Source: an uncultured Dehalococcoidia bacterium (GTDB taxonomy: Bacteria > Chloroflexota > Dehalococcoidia > Lucifugimonadales > UBA3495). Taken from it: a DNA stretch of 64,000 bases. This document shows, piece after piece, positions 30,437 through 44,245 of the stretch (within the stretch, counting starts at the first letter, position 1; the number at the start of each line of letters is the position of its first letter). The stretch covers positions 2,928,091 through 2,992,090 of the forward strand of contig CATQHB010000002.1 of assembly GCA_958295765.1 (NCBI GenBank). The letters are read 5' to 3'. A program made the translations under genes and the position numbers. Below the pieces are notes generated by a model. That model worked only from the letters and a program-made list of their open reading frames with translations. It was not told the origin of the DNA and did not search any database.

Positions 30437-31468
30437 CTACTCCCTCCGATTATGCTTGACCCATTGCCTAGCGAAATAGGCATATTCGGGGTTTATCTCA
30501 ATCCCCAAAAATTCTACGCCCAACTCTTGAGCTACAACGCACTCAGCCCCGGAGCCGGCAAAAGGAATCAGCACCTTACCGCCAGATCCGTTTATCCGGG
30601 ACAAAATCAGCCGCTTGGTTAGTTCCATAGGTTTCTGCGTTGGATGTTTGAGAACGTCGTGGCTACGGTGGTTTTTCAGGGCAGCGGGCGGATACAGCGT
30701 CATATCGCAGGAACGGCAGACAAACCAACGCTCTGAGCGTCCAGCGCCACCGGCGAGTGCTGGAACCTTCATAACGTCCCGTGGTAGAGCGCCACCAGCG
30801 TGGGCATTGTAGATAGTGGCCTTGCCATTGGCACCAAAACGAGACGGCGTCCCTCGACGTTCCTTGCCGGCGCATTTCAGGTAATTCTTGGTGTAAGGTT
30901 CCCGTATCTGGTCGACTTCCAAGTCGGGCCGATGTTCACCAGGTCGCCACAGGCACAGGATTGTTTCGTGCGACCGCTGCCAGAACCGGCCGGCCGGCAC
31001 GGTCTTGTTGGTGTAGTGCCAGACCAGCCACCGTTGTTCTTCGATTGGATAATGCGCTGCTACTCGGGCGATTATCTCAGGGAACCCGTACAGGTAGATT
31101 AACCCGCCCTCGGTCAAAAGCTGAAAACAGTCTGACAACCAGTTTTTAGTCCACTCGATATATCGCCCGATTGGCATTGTGTCTTGATTATTACCGAAGT
31201 CCTTGCCGATATTATACGGGGGGTCAGCGATGATAATGTCGAATGATTCCTTGGCGTTCCGTAGTTGCTGCAAAACATCGGCGGCATCGCCGGTAATTAT
31301 GCCGTTCTCGGCCCGGGTAATGACTGAAGTATCGGCATTATAGGTTTGACGGATTTCGTGCTCGCCGTTAGACGTGCTATTGTGTCCCGGCCAGAACTTG
31401 CCGTTCAGTTTCTCCTGCTCCGCCCGGCTTATCCGAGGCTCGTTGATGAAGCCTTCTGTGGTGGTCAT
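30437..31468 (-). CDS. DNA methyltransferase, beta-class N4/N6 (N6_N4_Mtase type)
   Basis: 343 aa. Motif IV IIADPPYN lies N-terminal, and HPTQKP plus motif I IPFAGSGAE lie C-terminal (order IV to I). Spot counts are about 40% GC. Confidence 0.85.
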   Translation of the reverse strand: MTTTEGFINEPRISRAEQEKLNGKFWPGHNSTSNGEHEIRQTYNADTSVITRAENGIITGDAADVLQQLRNAKESFDIIIADPPYNIGKDFGNNQDTMPIGRYIEWTKNWLSDCFQLLTEGGLIYLYGFPEIIARVAAHYPIEEQRWLVWHYTNKTVPAGRFWQRSHETILCLWRPGEHRPDLEVDQIREPYTKNYLKCAGKERRGTPSRFGANGKATIYNAHAGGALPRDVMKVPALAGGAGRSERWFVCRSCDMTLYPPAALKNHRSHDVLKHPTQKPMELTKRLILSRINGSGGKVLIPFAGSGAECVVAQELGVEFLGIEINPEYAYFARQWVKHNRRE

Positions 31469-36518: not shown

Positions 36519-37652
36519 CTACCCCAACTGCGGTATCTCCCCCGGCATATACCAGGTGCAGCGGAATACCCGGTTATCATCGTAGCCGTCGGTGCCCTGC
36601 GGGAAATAGGGGTTGATATACTCCCACACCACTTCCCCCGCCGGCGTTACCTGGAACATCCGGCCAAACATCCCCTCGGTAATCAGCGTGTTGCCGTTGG
36701 GCAGGCGGCGCGCGCCGGAGATGCGGGAACTGTAAAAGTTGAAGTAGGGGTTGTCCCGGTACTCCCAGACTATTTGATTGGTGGCCGGGTCAACCTCCAC
36801 CACCCGGGAAAAGATGCGCACGTCGTCCTGCCGCCGCTCCCCGTTATCGAAAATCAGGACGTTGCCGTTGGGCAGCAGGCTGGGGTCGTGCTGGCGGGAA
36901 ATAACGTCCCAGCCCAACTTCCAGGTAATATCTCCCGACTTCTTGTCAATCATCAGCACCGTGGAGATGTTGCGGAAGCTGACCAGCACCCGGTCATCGT
37001 CCAGGGGGACGATGGTATTGCCGTGGCTCCACTCGTGGCGCGGCTCGCCGGGGGTGATGATGTCGGTGGCCGGGTCCAGGTGCTGGTAGGCGTGCCAGTC
37101 CCAAACCTGATTGCCCTGCGCGTCCACCTCAATCAAATGGTCAGCCCACATATAGGTAGTCGCCGTCTGCCCGCCCTCGTGGTCGGCCTCCATCCCGCTG
37201 CCCGGCTGCCCGCCCTGCACCTGGTCGGCCACCGCCGAAGGGATGGCCTCCAAAGTCAGGAAAATGGCGCCGCCGGACTCGGTGCGGCGGGCGTCGTGAT
37301 GCTGGGCCGGGTTGATATGCTGCCAGACGATATTGCTGTCCCAGTCCACCTCCAGCAGCCAGCCGCCGACAAAGTTGGTCGCCGGCATCGCCCGCTGGCC
37401 GGTCTGGTCGGCCTTCGCCATAAAGAAAAGGTTGCCGCTGGGCAGCAGGTAGCCCCAGGAGCCGGGCGGGGTGGGCAGATGCCACCGATGCACCTCATTG
37501 CCCTCCAGATCCAGCAAAAAAGTTACCCCCTTCCCGGTTCCGTCGCCGTTATACGGGGAATAACAGAAATATCCGGGACAAGCCTGTTCCCGGTCCAAAG
37601 CGGTCAATCCGGTACGGCCCACCCGCCGCCAGGTTTGTTGGTCAACGCTCAT
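36519..37652 (-). CDS. arylsulfotransferase (ASST)-like beta-propeller protein
   Basis: 377 aa from ATG 37652 (GGGAGG 4 nt upstream). Recurring LPSGN / LPNGN / W.H.N / RLPNGNTLITEG..GR.F.VT..GE.VWEY pattern, typical of the Arylsulfotran_2-type family as I recall it. Confidence 0.65.
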   Translation of the reverse strand: MSVDQQTWRRVGRTGLTALDREQACPGYFCYSPYNGDGTGKGVTFLLDLEGNEVHRWHLPTPPGSWGYLLPSGNLFFMAKADQTGQRAMPATNFVGGWLLEVDWDSNIVWQHINPAQHHDARRTESGGAIFLTLEAIPSAVADQVQGGQPGSGMEADHEGGQTATTYMWADHLIEVDAQGNQVWDWHAYQHLDPATDIITPGEPRHEWSHGNTIVPLDDDRVLVSFRNISTVLMIDKKSGDITWKLGWDVISRQHDPSLLPNGNVLIFDNGERRQDDVRIFSRVVEVDPATNQIVWEYRDNPYFNFYSSRISGARRLPNGNTLITEGMFGRMFQVTPAGEVVWEYINPYFPQGTDGYDDNRVFRCTWYMPGEIPQLG

Positions 37653-37745
37653 ACGTCCTCCCGTATCTGCCGAATACCGCCCATTATCAGCCAAACCGCC
37701 ATGGCTGTAAACCGGGGAGTGGGGTTACCTTGGGGACGGTAAGGT

Positions 37746-38942
37746 TCACCGGCTTTCTTTCCAGGGGAATTCCACGTGCCAGAGATGGTTGTAACCGCCG
37801 CCCACCAGCACATACTGGCCGGTACTGACGCGGTCAATGGCATACTCCGGGAGAACCACCTCCACTATACATTTCCCGTCAAATATCTCGCCGCGCCAGC
37901 CAAATTGGAAATCCGGGTTGCCAAACCCGTAGCGCTGGCGATGGGCCGGCAGGTCGTTCACGTCAACCGGGTACAGGTGGAGAAAGAACGTCGCCTCAGT
38001 GTCCGCCGGGGCGCACCGCTCTTTAACGTAGGTCAGCGTGTTCTCATTCAGATATAGGTCAAAGTCGGAGCGGGCTATGGGTTCGTCGGATACCACCGCC
38101 GCGTATTCGGCGCGGGCCGCCGCTGCTCGATCGGCAGCTATGGGGTTGAAATACTGAAAAACGATCAACCCGATACTGCCGGCAATTACCAGGGAGCCGG
38201 TCAACAGCCACCAGGGAATCCGCCAGCCCGGCAGTTGCCAGCTACGGAGTGGCGCCGGCGCGATTGTCGCTAACCGTCCCGGCGCCTGAGCCAGCGCCAG
38301 CTCCAGAGCATAGAACAGGCAGCCGAGGCCGAACAGATACTCCCGTGTCTCCTGTATCCTGGGCCACCGGGCGATATTCTGGTCGTACACACTATGGTAG
38401 TTCACATAGGAGAGCGCAAAAACGAGGGCCAGGGTCGCCACCACCGCAATGACCAATTTGATTTGTCGCGAAAACAGGGCGAATATCAGCAATAGCAGCA
38501 GCAGCCCACTCTCCTTCAATACAGTAAAGTGTAATAAATCTCTGAGGCCCGATACTGAGTGATGGGAAAGTATCACCAGAAAGCCCAATGTCAGCAGGAT
38601 TGACGGGAAGGGAATCCCCAACAGCCGGTCTTTCCGAAAAAAGAAAGCCGCGCTGGTTGCCAGACACAGCAGAAACGCGCCGTTCCGGTAGATGGGGTCA
38701 AACCCTCGATCGCTGATATTGTGGACATTGAATTCTTTCTGATAATTCCAGGGCAGCAGGAAGTCGGGCGTCGCAAACCCGAAGATGCGCTGTCCCCAAC
38801 TGATTTCCTCGCCGGCGGCAAACACCATCGCCATACCGCCCAGCAGATAGACGCCGCGCCGGAAGAAGTTCGGCTCCAGCCAGGCCGTGCCGAACAGCAG
38901 AAAGCCGGCCAGGAGAAACCAGACCGCGGTGAGATACTCCAC
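37746..38942 (-). CDS. polytopic membrane protein with shared C-terminal ~105-aa domain (body downstream of a frameshifting C13 tract)
   Basis: 398 aa from GTG 38942. Multiple TM helices. The C-terminus FDLYLNENTLTYVKERCAPADTEATFFLHLYPVDVNDLP... is homologous to the C-termini of 39392..41668 and 41823..44120. Confidence 0.6.
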   Translation of the reverse strand: MEYLTAVWFLLAGFLLFGTAWLEPNFFRRGVYLLGGMAMVFAAGEEISWGQRIFGFATPDFLLPWNYQKEFNVHNISDRGFDPIYRNGAFLLCLATSAAFFFRKDRLLGIPFPSILLTLGFLVILSHHSVSGLRDLLHFTVLKESGLLLLLLIFALFSRQIKLVIAVVATLALVFALSYVNYHSVYDQNIARWPRIQETREYLFGLGCLFYALELALAQAPGRLATIAPAPLRSWQLPGWRIPWWLLTGSLVIAGSIGLIVFQYFNPIAADRAAAARAEYAAVVSDEPIARSDFDLYLNENTLTYVKERCAPADTEATFFLHLYPVDVNDLPAHRQRYGFGNPDFQFGWRGEIFDGKCIVEVVLPEYAIDRVSTGQYVLVGGGYNHLWHVEFPWKESR

Positions 38943-39102
38943 CCAGTAGTCTTCCAGGGTCAGATTACGGAAGGTCTCCGGGGCGGCGACGATGAGAAAG
39001 CTGAAGAAAAATACGTTCAGACTCAGCAGGAGGTAGGCAAGGACGGAAACCTTGTTGTCCAGACCCCTTGCGGGGGGGGGGGGGCAGAATTCTGGTGTTC
39101 AT
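38943..39102 (-). other. 5' segment of the same membrane-protein gene, out of register with the body
   Basis: ATG 39102 (MNTRIL) runs into C13. The body frame stays open from 39100 down to 38943 with no start codon and encodes a clean TM helix (VSVLAYLLLSLNVFFFSFLIVAA). A tract of 12 or 15 C would fuse ATG 39102 to the body. Confidence 0.6.
39072..39084. repeat. homopolymeric G13 (C13 on the coding strand)
   Basis: Counted directly: 9 + 4 G across two sequence blocks. It encodes the PPPP run after MNTRIL. Confidence 0.9.
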
Positions 39103-39310
39103 AGGATGATTCCGGCGTACCTGCTCCGCGCTGTTCCCTTGTTCCTGGCTCAGACATCCCGACTCCTGCCCTATGGCGCGGCTTGTTCTCATTATGTCGG
39201 CGCCAGGGCGATTGTCAAGGTTGAAAAGGCCGGGCAACCCGGACAACCTTACCAGGTCAACCCGGACAACCGCCCTATGGCAACCTAACAACCGTCGGCA
39301 ACCCAAGCAA

Positions 39311-39346
39311 CCGTCGTTCCGACGAAAGCCGGAATCCAGGAAATCC
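39311..39346. repeat. REP-D left half
   Basis: CCGTCGTTCCGACGAAAGCCGGAATCCAGGAAATCC with no right arm. Confidence 0.7.
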
Positions 39347-39391: not shown

Positions 39392-41668
39392 TCACCTGCT
39401 TTCGCTCAAGCGAATCTCCCCCTCCCACAAATGCTCGAAACCGCCTTCCACCAGCACGTACTGGCCGACGTAGATGGAGGTAATGGCGTATTCCGGGAGC
39501 GGCAGCGCCACCAGGCAGAAATCGCCGAATCTATTGCCATACTGGTCAAAGGTAAAATCCAGGCTGTCAAACCCGTATTGCTGGCGCGGTTCGGGCAGGT
39601 CTTTCACCTCAACCGGCTCCAGGTGCGCAAAGAACCGGGGATCCAGGTCGGCGGGGGCGCACGGCTCCTTTACGTAGATAAGTTGGTTTTCGACCAGATA
39701 TACGTCAAAGTCGGCGGAGAGCGCCGGTTGGTGGTCGCCGACCAAATCCGCCAGGTAATCGCTGGCCGTCATCGCTTTCCCCTGCACCGGCGGGGCGGCA
39801 TCGTGGGGCAGGACGGTGACCGCTACGCATAACCCGGTTTGCGTTTGCGTCCAGGCTTGGCGGTCGGTTGCGGCCCCGGCGCCGCTCCACTCCCACAATA
39901 TAAACTCTTCCGGCCGGCAATCCGGGGCAAACGCCTGCGCCAACCGCCCGTCCACCAGCAGCCCGACGCCGTCGGCCTGATAGTCAAAGTGCGGTTCCAT
40001 TCTTTCCCAGAACCAGGCGACGGGGTCAACAACTTCCGTTGCGCCGACCGGCCAGATCCTGAATTGGATTTCGCCGTTTACGGGGTGGAAAAATGACGGG
40101 CCTTTGTACAGAATCGCGTCCTCCTGATGGCCGACGCCTCGGAGGTTGGCAAAGTGGGTAATCCCATAACGGGGATAGAACTCGGTCTCGGTTCCCCGCT
40201 TTCGGGCGTGAAAATAGGCGTAGGAATTCACCAACCCGTCCAGGTTCACCACCGGAAAGCGGGAGAAATACCCGATAACCCCGGCGTCATACGACCCAAT
40301 CACGCTGCCCTCAGGCAGCGCCGCGTTCACCACCGGCGTACCCATATAGGAAGTAACATCCCAATTCCGCTCGGTTGACTGGCTTTTCCACTCAACCCAC
40401 CGGAACGGCCCGGTGAAATCCGCCCCGGTGAACAGCCAGACTGCGCCGACCACCAGGATAACCCCGCTCACCCCATTGGCCGCCAGCGCCGACCTCGGCC
40501 CAAGGAAACGGCGCAGAAAGTGAATGGCAACGTAACAAATCAGGGGAACGACCAGCGCCAGCATCAGGTACGCCGGGACGAAATACCAACCATAATCCCC
40601 GGCGTAACGATCCACCTGGAGGACGGTTTGCGCGAACTTGGCGATATGCCCCACCGCCAGGCTGAACCCGCCCACCAGAAAGGCCAGCAGCAGCCACTCC
40701 TCCCGGCTCCGGGAGCGGCGGCCCAGCCACCAAACCAGCAGCAGCAGCAGGAAACCGGCGCAGATTGCCAACGCCGTCAGCAGCGTCTCATTATGGAAAA
40801 CTTCGATTTGCCGGATCTCCTGGAAGTTCTGAGTCAGGCGGTAGCCGTCGGCGTTCTCCCACCGAGTTTGCGACCACCACCGCTTGCTGGCCCCGCTGAC
40901 CGGCACGATGCCGCCGAACACCAGCTTGTTGTAGGCAAAGTAGGCCAGGATGCCGGCAATTGCGCTGATTATTGGCGCAAAGGTTCGTGCCGGGGTAGAA
41001 ATCAGGGCAGCCCGCCAGGACACGTCGGCCGGCCGCTCCCGCCGCAACCACTCCATCAGCAGCAGCGCCGCCGTGGCGGTCAGCGATATGGCGATATACT
41101 CCAGGCGTACCCAGGGCAGGGCAAAGGCCACTACCGCCAGCGGCCAAGTCCACCGCTCCGGGTTGCGGGCATACAGCAGCAACGCCAGGAACAGCAGCCC
41201 CAGCATAAACAGCGCGGCGGCGGCCTCCAAGCCCACAAACAGGTTGCGCTGCTGATAGAGTATCGGCAGCAGGGCAAACAGCAGATACCAGGGCAGCCGG
41301 GCCAGCCGCGCCGCCACCGCAATTAACGCCACCGCCCCGGCAATGAGCATTATCTCCAGGGCTTTGATGGCAAACAGCGCCGTTTCCTTGTCAAACATCC
41401 AGTAGAAAGGGGTAATCAGCAGCAGCCAGATCGGATGGTAGCCATTAGTTCGGCTGATGCCGCCGTCAAAAGTGGAGAACCGCCCCTCGGAAAGGTGGTA
41501 GGCTATCTGAAAGTAGTAGAAAGAATCATCGCCGTTCACGTCCCGCAGCAGATTGACCAGGTCAAAGTTGACCAGCAGATACCCGGCAAAGGCGGCGCCA
41601 TAGGCCAGAATACCGCCAATAAACAAGGCAAACAGGGCGTGGCGCAAAGGTGCGGGCAGGGTGAACAT
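39392..41668 (-). CDS. GT-C-like polytopic membrane glycosyltransferase candidate with shared C-terminal domain (paralogue 1)
   Basis: 758 aa from ATG 41668 (MFTLPAPLRHALF). First-loop motif DDSFYYFQIAYHLSEGRFSTFDGGISRTNGYHPIW and more than 10 TM helices. The ORF-track extension to 42001 overlaps the next gene and repeats. Confidence 0.5.
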   Translation of the reverse strand: MFTLPAPLRHALFALFIGGILAYGAAFAGYLLVNFDLVNLLRDVNGDDSFYYFQIAYHLSEGRFSTFDGGISRTNGYHPIWLLLITPFYWMFDKETALFAIKALEIMLIAGAVALIAVAARLARLPWYLLFALLPILYQQRNLFVGLEAAAALFMLGLLFLALLLYARNPERWTWPLAVVAFALPWVRLEYIAISLTATAALLLMEWLRRERPADVSWRAALISTPARTFAPIISAIAGILAYFAYNKLVFGGIVPVSGASKRWWSQTRWENADGYRLTQNFQEIRQIEVFHNETLLTALAICAGFLLLLLVWWLGRRSRSREEWLLLAFLVGGFSLAVGHIAKFAQTVLQVDRYAGDYGWYFVPAYLMLALVVPLICYVAIHFLRRFLGPRSALAANGVSGVILVVGAVWLFTGADFTGPFRWVEWKSQSTERNWDVTSYMGTPVVNAALPEGSVIGSYDAGVIGYFSRFPVVNLDGLVNSYAYFHARKRGTETEFYPRYGITHFANLRGVGHQEDAILYKGPSFFHPVNGEIQFRIWPVGATEVVDPVAWFWERMEPHFDYQADGVGLLVDGRLAQAFAPDCRPEEFILWEWSGAGAATDRQAWTQTQTGLCVAVTVLPHDAAPPVQGKAMTASDYLADLVGDHQPALSADFDVYLVENQLIYVKEPCAPADLDPRFFAHLEPVEVKDLPEPRQQYGFDSLDFTFDQYGNRFGDFCLVALPLPEYAITSIYVGQYVLVEGGFEHLWEGEIRLSESR

Positions 41669-41674
41669 AGGGAA

Positions 41675-41683
41675 ATTGTAGCA
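41675..41683 (-). promoter_or_regulatory. extended -10 (TGCTACAAT) placed 6 nt before the ATG: leaderless-type promoter
   Basis: The minus strand reads ATATATGCTACAAT-ttccct-ATG. The same box occurs at 44129..44137 and 45951..45959. Confidence 0.5.
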
Positions 41684-41757
41684 TATATGGGGGGATTTTC
41701 CGCAGGGAGAGGCGGATAGGGTCAGGGCAACCCAGGCAACCGTCGGCAACACAAGAA

Positions 41758-41787
41758 CCGTCGTTCCGGCTTTCGCCGGAATCCAGG
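41758..41787. repeat. REP-D variant (rearranged core)
   Basis: CCGTCGTTCCGGCTTTCGCCGGAATCCAGG. Confidence 0.7.
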
Positions 41788-41822
41788 GTTTATGCTGCGA
41801 TTGCCCTGAGGGACGGGAATGT

Positions 41823-44120
41823 TCACCTGCTTTCTTTCCAAGAAAACTCCCCCTCCCATAAATGCTCGGAACCGTCCTCCACGGGCACATACTGGCCGGT
41901 GCGGATGGTGGCAATCTCATATTCCGGGAGCGGAACCATCGCCAGGCAGAGGTCGTCGAATTTATTGCCATGCCAGTCAAAGTTAAAGTCCAGGCTGTCA
42001 AACCCGTGTTGCTGGCGCAGTTCGGGCAGGTCCTTCACCTCAACCGGGTCCAGGTGTAGAAAGAACCAAGCCTCCAAGTCCGCCGGCTGGCACTGCTCCT
42101 TTGCGTAGATAAGTCGGTTTTCGACCAGATATACGTCAAAGTCGGTGGAGATTGCCGGTTGGCGGTCAACTATCAGGCTTGCCAAGTAATCGCTGGTCAT
42201 CATACCTTTTACTTGCACCGGTGGGATGGCATCGGGGGGCAGGATGATGACCGCTGCGCATAACCCGGTTTGCGTTTCCGTCCAGGCTTGGATGGCAGTG
42301 GTAGGCTCGGGGCCGCCCCAGTTCCATACTAGCAACTCTTCCGGCCGGCAACCCTGGGCAAATGCCTGGGCCAACCGCCCGTCCACCAGCAGCCCTACGC
42401 CGTCCGCTTGATAGTCAAAGTGCGGTTCCACCCTTCGCCAGAACCAAGCATCCGGGGCGGCTTCTTCGCTGGGCGGCGTACCGGCCGACCAGAAATTGAA
42501 CCTTCTTTCTTTAGAGGATTGTGGCCCCTCATAAAGCAGCTCACCATCAAAGCCCATTCTGGCAAGGTTGGCAAAGTGAGTTATTCCTAACTCTTGATAG
42601 ATCGGCCTGAATTCTTCCTTCCAAATGGCATATCCGTCCCGATCTGCGTTTGTCGCGTGAAAATAGTCATAAGAATTCACCACCCCGTCCAGGTTCACTA
42701 CCGGAAAGCGGGAGAAGTACCCGATAATCCCGGAGTCCCACGACCCAATCACGCTGCCCTCGGGCAGCGCCCGGTTCATAACCTGCGTCCCCCCATAAAA
42801 CACACCAAGCCATTCTTCGTGACTGACGGTTGAATCACTCCGCGATTCAATGAACCGGAAAGGCGCAGCGAAATCCGCCTTGGTCAGCAGAAAAACGGCG
42901 CTGACAACGACAATCCCGACGGCGAGGACATTGGCCGCCGGCGCCGACCTCGGCCCAATGAAACGGCGCAGAAAGTGAATGGCGACGTAACAGCCAAAGG
43001 GGACCGCCAGCGCCAACATTAAGTACGCCGGGACAAAATACCAGCCAAATGTCCCTTGGATAAAGGGATGCACTTGAAGGACGGTCTGGACGAACTTGGC
43101 GATATGCCCCACCGCCAGGCTGAACCCGCCCACCATAAAGGCCAGCAGCAGCCAGTCCTCCCGGCTCCGGGAGCGGTGGGCCAGCCACCCCACCAACAGG
43201 AAACCGATGCAGATTGCCAACGCCGTCAGCAGCGTCTCATTATTGAAAACATCGATTTGCCGGACCGCCTGGAGGTTCTGGAACAGGCTGTAGCCGCCTT
43301 CCTCCTCAAAGCGGACCTGCGACCACGCCTGCTTGCTGGCCCCGCTCACCGGCACGATGCCGCCGAATACCAGCTTGTTGTAGGCGAAGTAAGTCAGGAT
43401 GCCGGCAAGGGCGCTGATTATTGGCGCAAAGGTTCGGCGGGCCGGGATAGCAGTCAAGGCAGCGCGCCAGGACGCGCCGGGCGTCCGCTCTTGCCGCGAC
43501 CATTCCATCAGCAGCAGCGCCGCCGTGGCGGTCAGCGATATGGCAATATACTCCAGCCTGACCCAGGGCAGGGCAAAGGCTACGCCGGCCAGCGGCCAAG
43601 TCCACCGCTCCGGGTTCCGGGCGCAGAGCAGCAAGGCCAGGAACAACAGCCCCAGCATAAACAGCGCGGCGGCGGCCTCCAGCCCATGAAAGATGATGCG
43701 AGTTTGATAGAGTATCGGCAGCGGGGCAAACAACAGAATCCAGGGCAGACGGGCCAGCCGCGCCGCTACCGCGATAAGGGCTACCCCGCCGGCGATGAGC
43801 ATAATCTCCAGGGCTTTGATGGCAAACAGCGCCCCTTCCTTGTCAAATATCCAGTAGAAGGGAGTTATCAGCAGCAACCAGAGGGGATGGTAGCCGTTAG
43901 TTTGAGTGATGCCGCCGTCAAAGGTGGAGAACTTTCCCTCGGCCAGGTGATAGGCTATCTGGAAGTAGTAGAAAGCATCATCATGGGTCAGATCCCGCAG
44001 CAGGTTGATGACGTCGAACTTGACCAGCACATAACCGGCAAAGGCGGCGCCGTAGGCCAGAGTACCGCCAATAAACAAGACAAACAGGGCGTGGCGCAAA
44101 AGAGCAGTCAGGGTGAACAT
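41823..44120 (-). CDS. GT-C-like polytopic membrane glycosyltransferase candidate with shared C-terminal domain (paralogue 2)
   Basis: 765 aa from ATG 44120 (MFTLTALLRHALF). HDDAFYYFQIAYHLAEGKFSTFDGGITQTNGYHPLW. Collinear with paralogue 1 throughout. Confidence 0.5.
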   Translation of the reverse strand: MFTLTALLRHALFVLFIGGTLAYGAAFAGYVLVKFDVINLLRDLTHDDAFYYFQIAYHLAEGKFSTFDGGITQTNGYHPLWLLLITPFYWIFDKEGALFAIKALEIMLIAGGVALIAVAARLARLPWILLFAPLPILYQTRIIFHGLEAAAALFMLGLLFLALLLCARNPERWTWPLAGVAFALPWVRLEYIAISLTATAALLLMEWSRQERTPGASWRAALTAIPARRTFAPIISALAGILTYFAYNKLVFGGIVPVSGASKQAWSQVRFEEEGGYSLFQNLQAVRQIDVFNNETLLTALAICIGFLLVGWLAHRSRSREDWLLLAFMVGGFSLAVGHIAKFVQTVLQVHPFIQGTFGWYFVPAYLMLALAVPFGCYVAIHFLRRFIGPRSAPAANVLAVGIVVVSAVFLLTKADFAAPFRFIESRSDSTVSHEEWLGVFYGGTQVMNRALPEGSVIGSWDSGIIGYFSRFPVVNLDGVVNSYDYFHATNADRDGYAIWKEEFRPIYQELGITHFANLARMGFDGELLYEGPQSSKERRFNFWSAGTPPSEEAAPDAWFWRRVEPHFDYQADGVGLLVDGRLAQAFAQGCRPEELLVWNWGGPEPTTAIQAWTETQTGLCAAVIILPPDAIPPVQVKGMMTSDYLASLIVDRQPAISTDFDVYLVENRLIYAKEQCQPADLEAWFFLHLDPVEVKDLPELRQQHGFDSLDFNFDWHGNKFDDLCLAMVPLPEYEIATIRTGQYVPVEDGSEHLWEGEFSWKESR

Positions 44121-44128
44121 AGGGGGTA

Positions 44129-44137
44129 ATTGTAGCA
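44129..44137 (-). promoter_or_regulatory. extended -10 (TGCTACAAT) 8 nt before the ATG
   Basis: The minus strand reads TATATGCTACAAT-taccccct-ATG. Confidence 0.5.
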
Positions 44138-44245
44138 TATACGCCGGGCTTTTTCGCAGGGAAACGCCTGAAGGGTCAGGGCAACCGTCGGTAACCCGGG
44201 GGCCGGGAATGTTCCCTTGTTTTCCTGGTAGTCGGCGGCCCGCGC

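Follow-up and report, generated by a model that had tools for sequence, protein, structure and literature searches.

A poly-C tract as the probable frame switch of a polytopic membrane-protein gene in an uncultured Dehalococcoidia bacterium

A run of 13 C residues close to the 5' end of a polytopic membrane-protein gene of an uncultured Dehalococcoidia bacterium is very probably a simple-sequence contingency locus, in which slippage gates the reading frame. The gene lies on the minus strand of a 64,000-nt stretch (the window), which corresponds to C2:2928091-2992090 of a two-contig genome, G000 (3.42 Mb, 61.5% G+C; C1 and C2 are its contigs, while C13, C14 and so on denote tract lengths). By its RpoB relatives, the genome belongs to the Dehalococcoidia. 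The tract occupies window positions 39072..39084 (C13 on the coding strand, G13 on the plus strand), begins in codon 25 and spans codons 25-29. It is the sole run of at least 10 nt anywhere in the window and is the presumed hypermutable element of the gene. The anatomy of the 5' region, the conservation of the leader module, a tract-length polymorphism with ON and OFF alleles among strains and the enrichment of similar tracts across the genome carry this reading.

The tract, its leader and its start codons

A sigma-70-like promoter is located upstream of the tract at 39191..39218 (minus strand, as are all features of this section). It consists of the -35 hexamer TTGACA (39218-39213), a 16-nt spacer and the -10 hexamer CATAAT (39196-39191), and matched the consensus at 11 of 12 positions in a promoter scan. 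It is followed by a Shine-Dalgarno (SD) sequence AGGAG (39163..39167), placed 5 nt 5' of ATG 39157-39155. This ATG opens a 24-codon leader, MSEPGTREQRGAGTPESSYEHQNS(A) (39085..39157), which runs into the tract. With 13 C, the frame from ATG 39157 ends at 39023 and yields a 44-aa OFF product, MSEPGTREQRGAGTPESSYEHQNSAPPPPQGVWTTRFPSLPTSC* (39023..39157). On the other side of the tract, the body of the membrane protein (37746..39071) is intact, comprising 441 codons and a stop, with no internal stops.

The same 5' region is present in five paralogues in the genome, and in their alignment conservation starts abruptly at the -35 hexamer. All five share the module composed of the TTGACA-16 nt-CATAAT promoter, AGGAG, ATG, the 24-codon leader and poly-C; the SD is also identical in all ten syntenic alleles described below. 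One paralogue (C24) keeps the module though its body is just 41% identical to the window protein, and here the SD-linked frame crosses the tract into a 282-aa body. Such conservation suggests that the TTGACA/CATAAT element functions as a promoter.

Intact homologues in other assemblies carry the leader encoded from ATG 39157. In a protein search, P0003 (99% identity), P0004 (94%) and many paralogue alleles (e.g., P0126) were found to start with MSEPGTREQRGAGTPE..NSA-P(4-8)-A[RT]GLDNKVSV, and a variable poly-Pro run immediately 5' of the GLD[NS][KT]V motif is the rule among 120 homologues. We therefore infer that the promoter- and SD-linked ATG 39157, rather than ATG 39102 further downstream, is the principal start. 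Since intact orthologues read MSEPGTREQRGAGTPE...NSA-Pn-ARGLDNK from this codon, the main ON lengths should be those with n = 2 mod 3 (11, 14, 17, 20).

An earlier note on this stretch had read the gene from ATG 39102, with MNTRIL followed by 13 C and translation ending at TAA 38965. The sequence is as it described: ATG 39102-39100 is followed by AAC ACC AGA ATT CTG and then by exactly 13 C (39084-39072), and the resulting frame, MNTRIL-PPPP... (38965..39102), closes at TAA 38967-38965. However, no SD is found upstream of this codon in ggaatcatcctATG. Besides, ATGAACACC is followed by an in-frame TAA as the fourth codon in three of the five paralogues, so ATG 39102 is not a general start among them. 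The note was right in its arithmetic that a tract of C12 or C15 puts ATG 39102 in frame with the body, but these would not be the main ON lengths, as ATG 39157 requires n = 2 mod 3.

ATG 39102 is homologous to a start codon of more distant relatives, ATGAACGCCAAT ('MNAN'), which is preceded by GAGGAG and lies four codons before the tract. Because of this homology, and because a C21 allele is in frame from it (see below), ATG 39102 may act as a second, weak start in alleles with n = 0 mod 3.

The body frame is open well upstream of the start chosen by gene callers. They place the beginning of a 398-aa product (P0005) at GTG 38940..38942, with the stop at 37746, and this product lacks the first transmembrane (TM) helix. 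The frame continues upstream to 39098, where it is limited by TGA at 39101-39099; the note had set this limit at 39100, a trivial difference. Between 39098 and 38942 it does lack any ATG, GTG or TTG, as had been claimed. This part encodes ...PPPPARGLDNKVSVLAYLLLSLNVFFFSFLIVAAPETFRNLTLEDYW, a hydrophobic helix (Kyte-Doolittle score 2.45), which agrees with its earlier description as a transmembrane segment.

Orthologues devoid of the tract have the TM helix directly downstream of an ordinary SD-ATG. It is AGGAGcgcgtATG-SPEK-GLDNKVSVLGYL... in a metagenome-assembled genome (MAG) of Latescibacteria and GGGAGGgcaaATG... in a Dehalococcoidia MAG. Since orthologues without the tract include the helix right after their start, it belongs to the protein; orthologues lacking this coding potential, which the note had named as evidence to the contrary, are not what the comparison gave. 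The OFF frame accounts for the 398-aa GTG product, an artefact; OFF alleles in other assemblies have likewise been called in truncated form (398-409 aa, starting with MEYLTAVWF).

In the mechanism we propose, transcription would start at the conserved TTGACA/CATAAT promoter and translation at the AGGAG-linked ATG 39157. Slipped-strand mispairing at replication would alter the tract length; such slippage, its reversibility and its rate are what we infer from these sequences. Only n = 2 mod 3 would join the leader to the 441-codon body. At n = 0 mod 3 the body would be joined to the weak, SD-less ATG 39102 only. The remaining class, n = 1 mod 3, which includes C13, would be the single one that is off from both starts, leaving the 44-aa peptide; the earlier view that the gene is off at C13 would hold. 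The tract would read as poly-proline in every frame, inside a disordered N-terminal tail, and gain or loss of prolines would be tolerated for this reason.

Two other interpretations of the region were considered and rejected. One took 'ATGAACACCTAAATT' for a -10 element, which would place the start of transcription at the tract. For the window family it was dropped because a better promoter and SD-ATG are located upstream and intact homologues translate across the tract. The other arose because several tracts seemed to have one C too many when counted from the ATGAACACC start, as if the assembly were regularly biased by +1 or +1 frameshifting took place. With the correct start the offsets run in both directions, and the impression is gone.

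A conserved hairpin, TTCCGGC-TTTC-G(T/C)CGGAA, is located about 100 nt upstream of the promoter (39317-39334, minus strand) and is followed by GGTTG-rich repeats. Four of the five paralogues have this hairpin, and another copy stands before a C11 tract at C2:2604529. Termination of the upstream gene or a regulatory function may be its role.

Tract length among strains

Strain variation was examined in a syntenic set made up of the window and nine further contigs from two European Nucleotide Archive metagenome assemblies. The contig names in one of them, ERZ19489113 (ptg...c / ptg...l), indicate hifiasm-meta, i.e., PacBio HiFi reads. In all nine, the 758/795-aa gene lies upstream of the locus and the arylsulfotransferase gene downstream. 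Over about 4 kb the nine contigs are 93.5-97.4% identical to the window and other indels are few (for example, 2 gap openings in 3968 nt between L104 and the window).

In contrast to these conserved flanks, the tract is polymorphic, with lengths of 13, 13, 14, 14, 17, 17, 20, 20, 21 and 22 in the ten alleles. At C13 it already exceeds the length at which coding tracts become unstable (about 7-8). The SD-linked open reading frame (ORF) is 44 aa long both in the window and in L103 (C13, OFF; 97.2% identical to the window). It is full-length and ON in L100 and L101 (C14, 475 aa each), L097 (C20, 472 aa) and L098 (C20, 473 aa). It is OFF in L104 (C17 + GCCCC, 47 aa), L099 (C22, 47 aa) and L102 (C21, 66 aa). 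In L105 (C17 + GCC) it is in frame across the tract and broken at 190 aa. Thus the same SD-ATG gives 44 aa with C13 and 472-475 aa with C14 or C20; full-length frames (472-475 aa) are found in four alleles and short ones (44-66 aa) in five. The leaders of L100 and L101 are identical to that of the window, and their tract is exactly one C longer.

A comparison of orthologues for tract presence and length had been proposed in the earlier note. Its outcome, 13-22 C with in-frame and out-of-frame alleles, together with about 20 similar tracts in the genome, strongly supports the slipped-strand contingency design suggested there.

The same alleles bear on the choice of the start codon. If translation began at ATG 39102 (MNTRIL), the functional ON lengths would be C12, C15 and so on. 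Besides the arithmetic and the homology to the 'MNAN-Pn' relatives, this model is favoured by L102, where the C21 tract gives a 459-aa ORF from ATG 39102 (P0132). Yet this is one allele out of ten, while ATG 39157 gives the full-length frame in four and leads in frame across the tract in a fifth. Considering also the missing SD, the TAA codon in the paralogues and the leader of intact homologues, we find this model improbable.

Paralogues show the same picture. Their clusters at 90% identity mix full-length (467-480 aa) and truncated (398-409 aa) calls. Judged by product length, there are about 16 ON and about 26 OFF calls in roughly ten conspecific genomes of 3.37-3.40 Mb, and the ON/OFF combinations of paralogues differ from genome to genome. 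The 16:26 ratio is close to the 1/3 expected if the tract phase were randomised faster than the strains diverged.

The gene could also be plainly dead, a decaying pseudogene with an incidental tract. It is out of frame in this assembly, and L105 has an extra disruption downstream. However, lesions beyond the tract are absent from the window copy, whose stop-free 441-codon body is 99% identical to that of the intact, ON orthologue P0003. Conservation of the promoter, SD and leader is perfect, sister strains often have in-frame alleles, and tracts of this design are found again throughout the protein family. We regard a plain pseudogene as very improbable indeed.

Another way to rescue an out-of-frame gene is recoding, where slippage of RNA polymerase or -1 ribosomal slippage of tRNA-Pro would restore the frame at any DNA length. 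Long homopolymers promote transcriptional slippage and CCC-C runs are shift-prone, and this general knowledge of slippage-prone homopolymers is what speaks for recoding here. Programmed recoding sites, however, have one fixed length that needs the shift. The orthologous tracts vary between 13 and 22, and four of the ten alleles are full-length directly in frame. No stimulatory structure came to light either, although none was searched for. Recoding is therefore quite unlikely to be the explanation; it could add leakiness but does not replace a switch at the DNA level.

Some observations weigh against a contingency locus or complicate it. The length polymorphism that the sequences document is one between strains. 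The L105 allele is in frame across the tract and still disrupted downstream, so some decay also occurs. The use of the promoter and of the start codon rests on conservation. MutS and MutL are encoded in the genome and should damp 1-nt slippage. Their presence rules out missing mismatch repair as the cause of the tracts; long tracts may compensate, as a cell with working repair may need them to slip often enough. Finally, of the two overlaps between the assembly contigs, one, 17.5 kb long, contains five indels, all of them 1-nt homopolymer differences that are always longer in C1. One affects a long tract (G16 vs G15) and four affect runs of 4-6 nt.

The overlaps join the contigs at both ends: C1:4861-24605 matches C2:1-19745 (19.7 kb, 99.87%) and C1:309659-327117 matches C2:3066909-3084362 (17.5 kb, 99.66%). 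It is therefore probable that G000 forms a single circular molecule of about 3.38 Mb.

As overlapping contigs differ by 1 nt at homopolymers, C13 itself may be off by one. If so, the true or modal tract would be C14 and the gene would be ON, either through an assembly miscall or through the consensus of a mixed population. The intact C14 alleles with identical leader and flanks (L100 and L101) fit such an error. Against it, the independent strain contig L103 also has C13, and this length therefore occurs in nature. Further out-of-frame lengths (22, 17+5, 21) are present in other contigs, and the 19.7-kb overlap is free of indels. Truncated calls form the majority across paralogues and genomes, which would require very frequent errors. 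We see a miscall of this allele as a real possibility, though not the probable one, and take C13 to be the presumable modal length. A miscall would be compatible with the tract being a switch in any case. Sequencing error, which the note had named as an alternative, does not account for between-strain differences of 7-9 nt; only a 1-nt miscall of this allele is left of that proposal.

Similar tracts in the genome and in relatives

C/G runs in G000 are distributed bimodally. There are 1308 runs of 6, 178 of 7, 4 of 8 and 3 of 9, and then 20 runs of 11-25 nt. The two modes arise because runs of at least 8 are depleted 14-fold (27 vs 381 expected) while runs of at least 13 exceed expectation, 19 (13-25 nt) being found against 1.05 expected under a model of independent, identically distributed bases. 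For runs of at least 15 the same model predicts 0.10, and 15 are present. The longest A/T run in the genome does not exceed 8. C is on the sense strand in nearly all tracts, and the tracts form paralogous groups with conserved flanks. The over-represented tracts are found in genes for surface proteins and restriction-modification (R-M) functions.

The window membrane-protein family contributes five tract-bearing copies, one of them ON. Two arylsulfotransferase (ASST) lipoproteins (C19 and C16) are both ON, and so is a secreted GLUG-motif protein (C13). In a GSDH lipoprotein gene the sense strand carries poly-G. Three large membrane proteins have mid-gene tracts and are all OFF. Pfam matches back the family names of the LRR, ASST, GLUG, GSDH and DNA methylase tract genes, and these are typical contingency cargo. 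If all of the approximately 20 loci switch in the way proposed, they would make up a 'phasome', with each strain showing its own combination of surface proteins.

Two lipoproteins with plant-type leucine-rich repeats (LRR), 'LSGEIPAELGNLSNLT', are encoded at C2:953111-953128 (C18, OFF) and C2:988881-988905 (C25, ON). Both follow the pattern taAGGAG-N8-ATGCCnGGAATTTTA-Cn, and their SD-ATG-MPGIL-polyC switches stand before the lipoprotein signal peptide. The repeats make them eukaryote-like proteins, presumably controlled stochastically.

An N6/N4 DNA methyltransferase gene (PF01555, E = 6e-42) has a C17 tract at its 5' end (C2:488375-488391), preceded by ATGAACATATAA. By its sequence it is a candidate phasevarion. 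Another N6_N4 methylase gene, located in the window at 30437-31468 (minus strand), has no tract.

Unrelated tract genes share their flanks. The 5' side is A/T-rich (AATTCTG, GAATTCTA, GAATTTTA, TTAATTA), and the 3' flank opens with GA at most tracts (GACTTT, GAGAAA, GAGATT). The same flanks are found in a Binatia MAG (L002:933-945 and L002:4886-4895). They could go back to a portable module inherited from one ancestor, be required for slippage or serve to avoid stop codons.

Tracts of this kind are widespread among relatives. Genomes of the same genus have C18 and C17 at the equivalent position of homologues, and runs of at least 12 occur in 29 of 41 relatives across the order. Ten of the 12 relatives without any are assemblies of at least 20 contigs. 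MAGs of other phyla that have homologues hold a few such tracts: the Binatia MAG has ATGAATTCTA-C13 and -C10 before homologous genes, plus a decayed, fixed-ON copy. Two genomes of the same family, G005 and G016, contain 947 and 753 overlapping 12-mer C/G windows against 115 here, and must therefore contain a much larger number of tracts or considerably longer ones.

Orthologues in MAGs labelled as other phyla (L001, Latescibacteria; L002, Binatia) are 73-77% identical to the window protein. This suggests horizontal transfer of the membrane-protein family within one community. HiFi MAGs of Latescibacteria, Binatia and Chloroflexota found together are typical of sponge metagenomes (PMC12648040).

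A broader extension of these data is speculative, and we think it considerably more likely to be wrong than right. Large phasomes of long poly-C tracts (13-30 nt) would exist throughout an entire order of uncultured Dehalococcoidia and in co-occurring bacteria of other phyla (e.g., Binatia), despite intact mismatch repair. The promoter-SD-leader-poly-C unit would be a portable module, more conserved than the genes it controls and shared by non-orthologous genes, possibly between phyla, via recombination or horizontal transfer. Some copies might be three-state (strong, weak and off), as two starts in two frames lie 5' of the tract. If the source was a sponge, the LRR tracts would mean stochastic variation of 'eukaryote-like' lipoproteins in a mutualistic symbiont.

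The membrane protein, its neighbours and known switches

A hydropathy scan of the window protein predicts six TM helices, with more in the model of an orthologue, and the protein has an invariant GEEISWGQ loop. The AlphaFold model, built for the orthologue P0003 (106 sequences; predicted local distance difference test, pLDDT, 73), consists of a disordered N-terminal tail (leader and poly-Pro), a helical membrane core and a C-terminal beta-sandwich. The invariant loop, as G-E-E-x-x-W-x-Q, is part of the core. A Foldseek search of the model against the PDB gave no convincing fold match for the membrane core. The membrane position and predicted variable expression of the protein suggest a surface-related role.

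The C-terminal beta-sandwich domain (37749..38111, minus strand) is about 120 aa long and looks extracytoplasmic; its strands have pLDDT of about 85-93 in the model. Against the PDB it shows only an FN3/Ig-like resemblance (E 0.04 or weaker). In G000 it has 38 matches, mostly over residues ~310-450, which are mainly the ends of polytopic membrane proteins of 700-880 aa. The domain is characterised by the motif D[FY]D[VL]YL..N.L.YVKEPC...FF[LA]HL.PV...DLP...GFDN.DF, and further window copies are at 39392-39790 and 41823-42220 (minus strand). Its presence on dozens of polytopic membrane proteins without a family is a lineage-specific expansion.

The downstream gene (36519..37694, minus strand) codes for an arylsulfotransferase (PF05935, E = 1.6e-26) and is the same neighbour as in L097-L105. 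Upstream are two paralogous polytopic membrane-protein ORFs (39392-42001 and 41823-44138, minus strand) with the same C-terminal domain. Neither Pfam nor NCBIfam has a family for the tract gene or for these two large neighbours (869 and 771 aa).

The locus had been described as a glycosyltransferase-like cluster, which finds no support at the family level. Pfam, NCBIfam, Foldseek and PDB sequence searches gave no significant match to a glycosyltransferase family or fold for the tract gene or its neighbours. A 615-aa neighbour has a sub-threshold Agl23-like match (21.9 bits vs a cut-off of 126). The GT-C identity of the neighbours was rejected, since neither phmmer against the PDB nor the family scans gave anything above threshold.

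Campylobacter jejuni has about 30 intragenic or intergenic poly-G/C tracts per genome, in capsule, lipooligosaccharide, flagellar-glycosylation and R-M genes. The genome studied here resembles it in the genome-wide G/C homopolymers, their bimodal lengths and their 5' location in surface genes and a DNA methylase gene; in both, tract length gates the frame and ON/OFF combinations are strain-specific. Tracts of C. jejuni are about 8-13 nt long, in contrast to 13-25 here and up to about 30 in sister strains. Campylobacter is reported to lack MutS and MutL, whereas both are present here. The host is an uncultured Dehalococcoidia bacterium with other cargo families, and its switching is a predicted one.

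In Neisseria, poly-G tracts are found in the glycosyltransferase genes lgt and pgtA (PMC2192423, PMC2193922), and N. meningitidis has a phasome of simple-sequence repeats (PMC5084427). Both systems have homopolymers inside envelope-modifying genes of a multi-gene family, close to the 5' end, with translational ON/OFF control. Unlike those genes, the window gene has no recognisable glycosyltransferase domain, its tract is part of a dedicated leader module conserved among paralogues, and its switch is a putative one.

Phasevarions depend on phase-variable mod DNA methyltransferases, e.g., ModM of Moraxella (PMC6902483). The C17 tract at the 5' end of the N6/N4 DNA methylase gene (C2:488375) is similar to them, except that it is made up of a single nucleotide instead of tetra- or pentanucleotide units; this locus is separate from the window gene. 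Poly-G tracts in expanded families of surface-protein paralogues are known from the pmpG family of Chlamydia and tpr of Treponema (PMC4488443, PMC7864442). As there, every paralogue has its own homopolymer and expression would be combinatorial. However, the tracts of Chlamydia and Treponema are shorter, many of them are in promoters, and they belong to pathogens rather than to environmental or symbiotic Chloroflexota.

By every hallmark that can be checked in DNA, the mechanism appears to be that of a classic homopolymeric contingency locus, as in Campylobacter, Neisseria and Helicobacter. It differs from the known loci in the Dehalococcoidia host, the tract length of 13 to about 30, the intact mismatch repair and the module shared by diverged paralogues. 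The searchable literature contained no report of phase variation in Chloroflexota, Dehalococcoidia, SAR202 or sponge symbionts. Homopolymer phase variation is, to our knowledge, textbook matter for a few host-adapted pathogens and is hardly documented in environmental or mutualistic bacteria.

Here a set of about 20 loci with very long poly-C switches is accompanied by strain-resolved ON/OFF combinations inside one metagenome assembly. Gene callers systematically annotate such genes as 5'-truncated, giving products of 398-405 aa without the first membrane helix. Relatives assembled in many contigs, probably from short reads, have none of these tracts, and the phenomenon is therefore seen only with long-read MAGs. 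Overall, the tracts suggest that uncultured lineages of this kind also hedge their bets on the composition of the cell surface, with phages, host cells or grazers as the threat.

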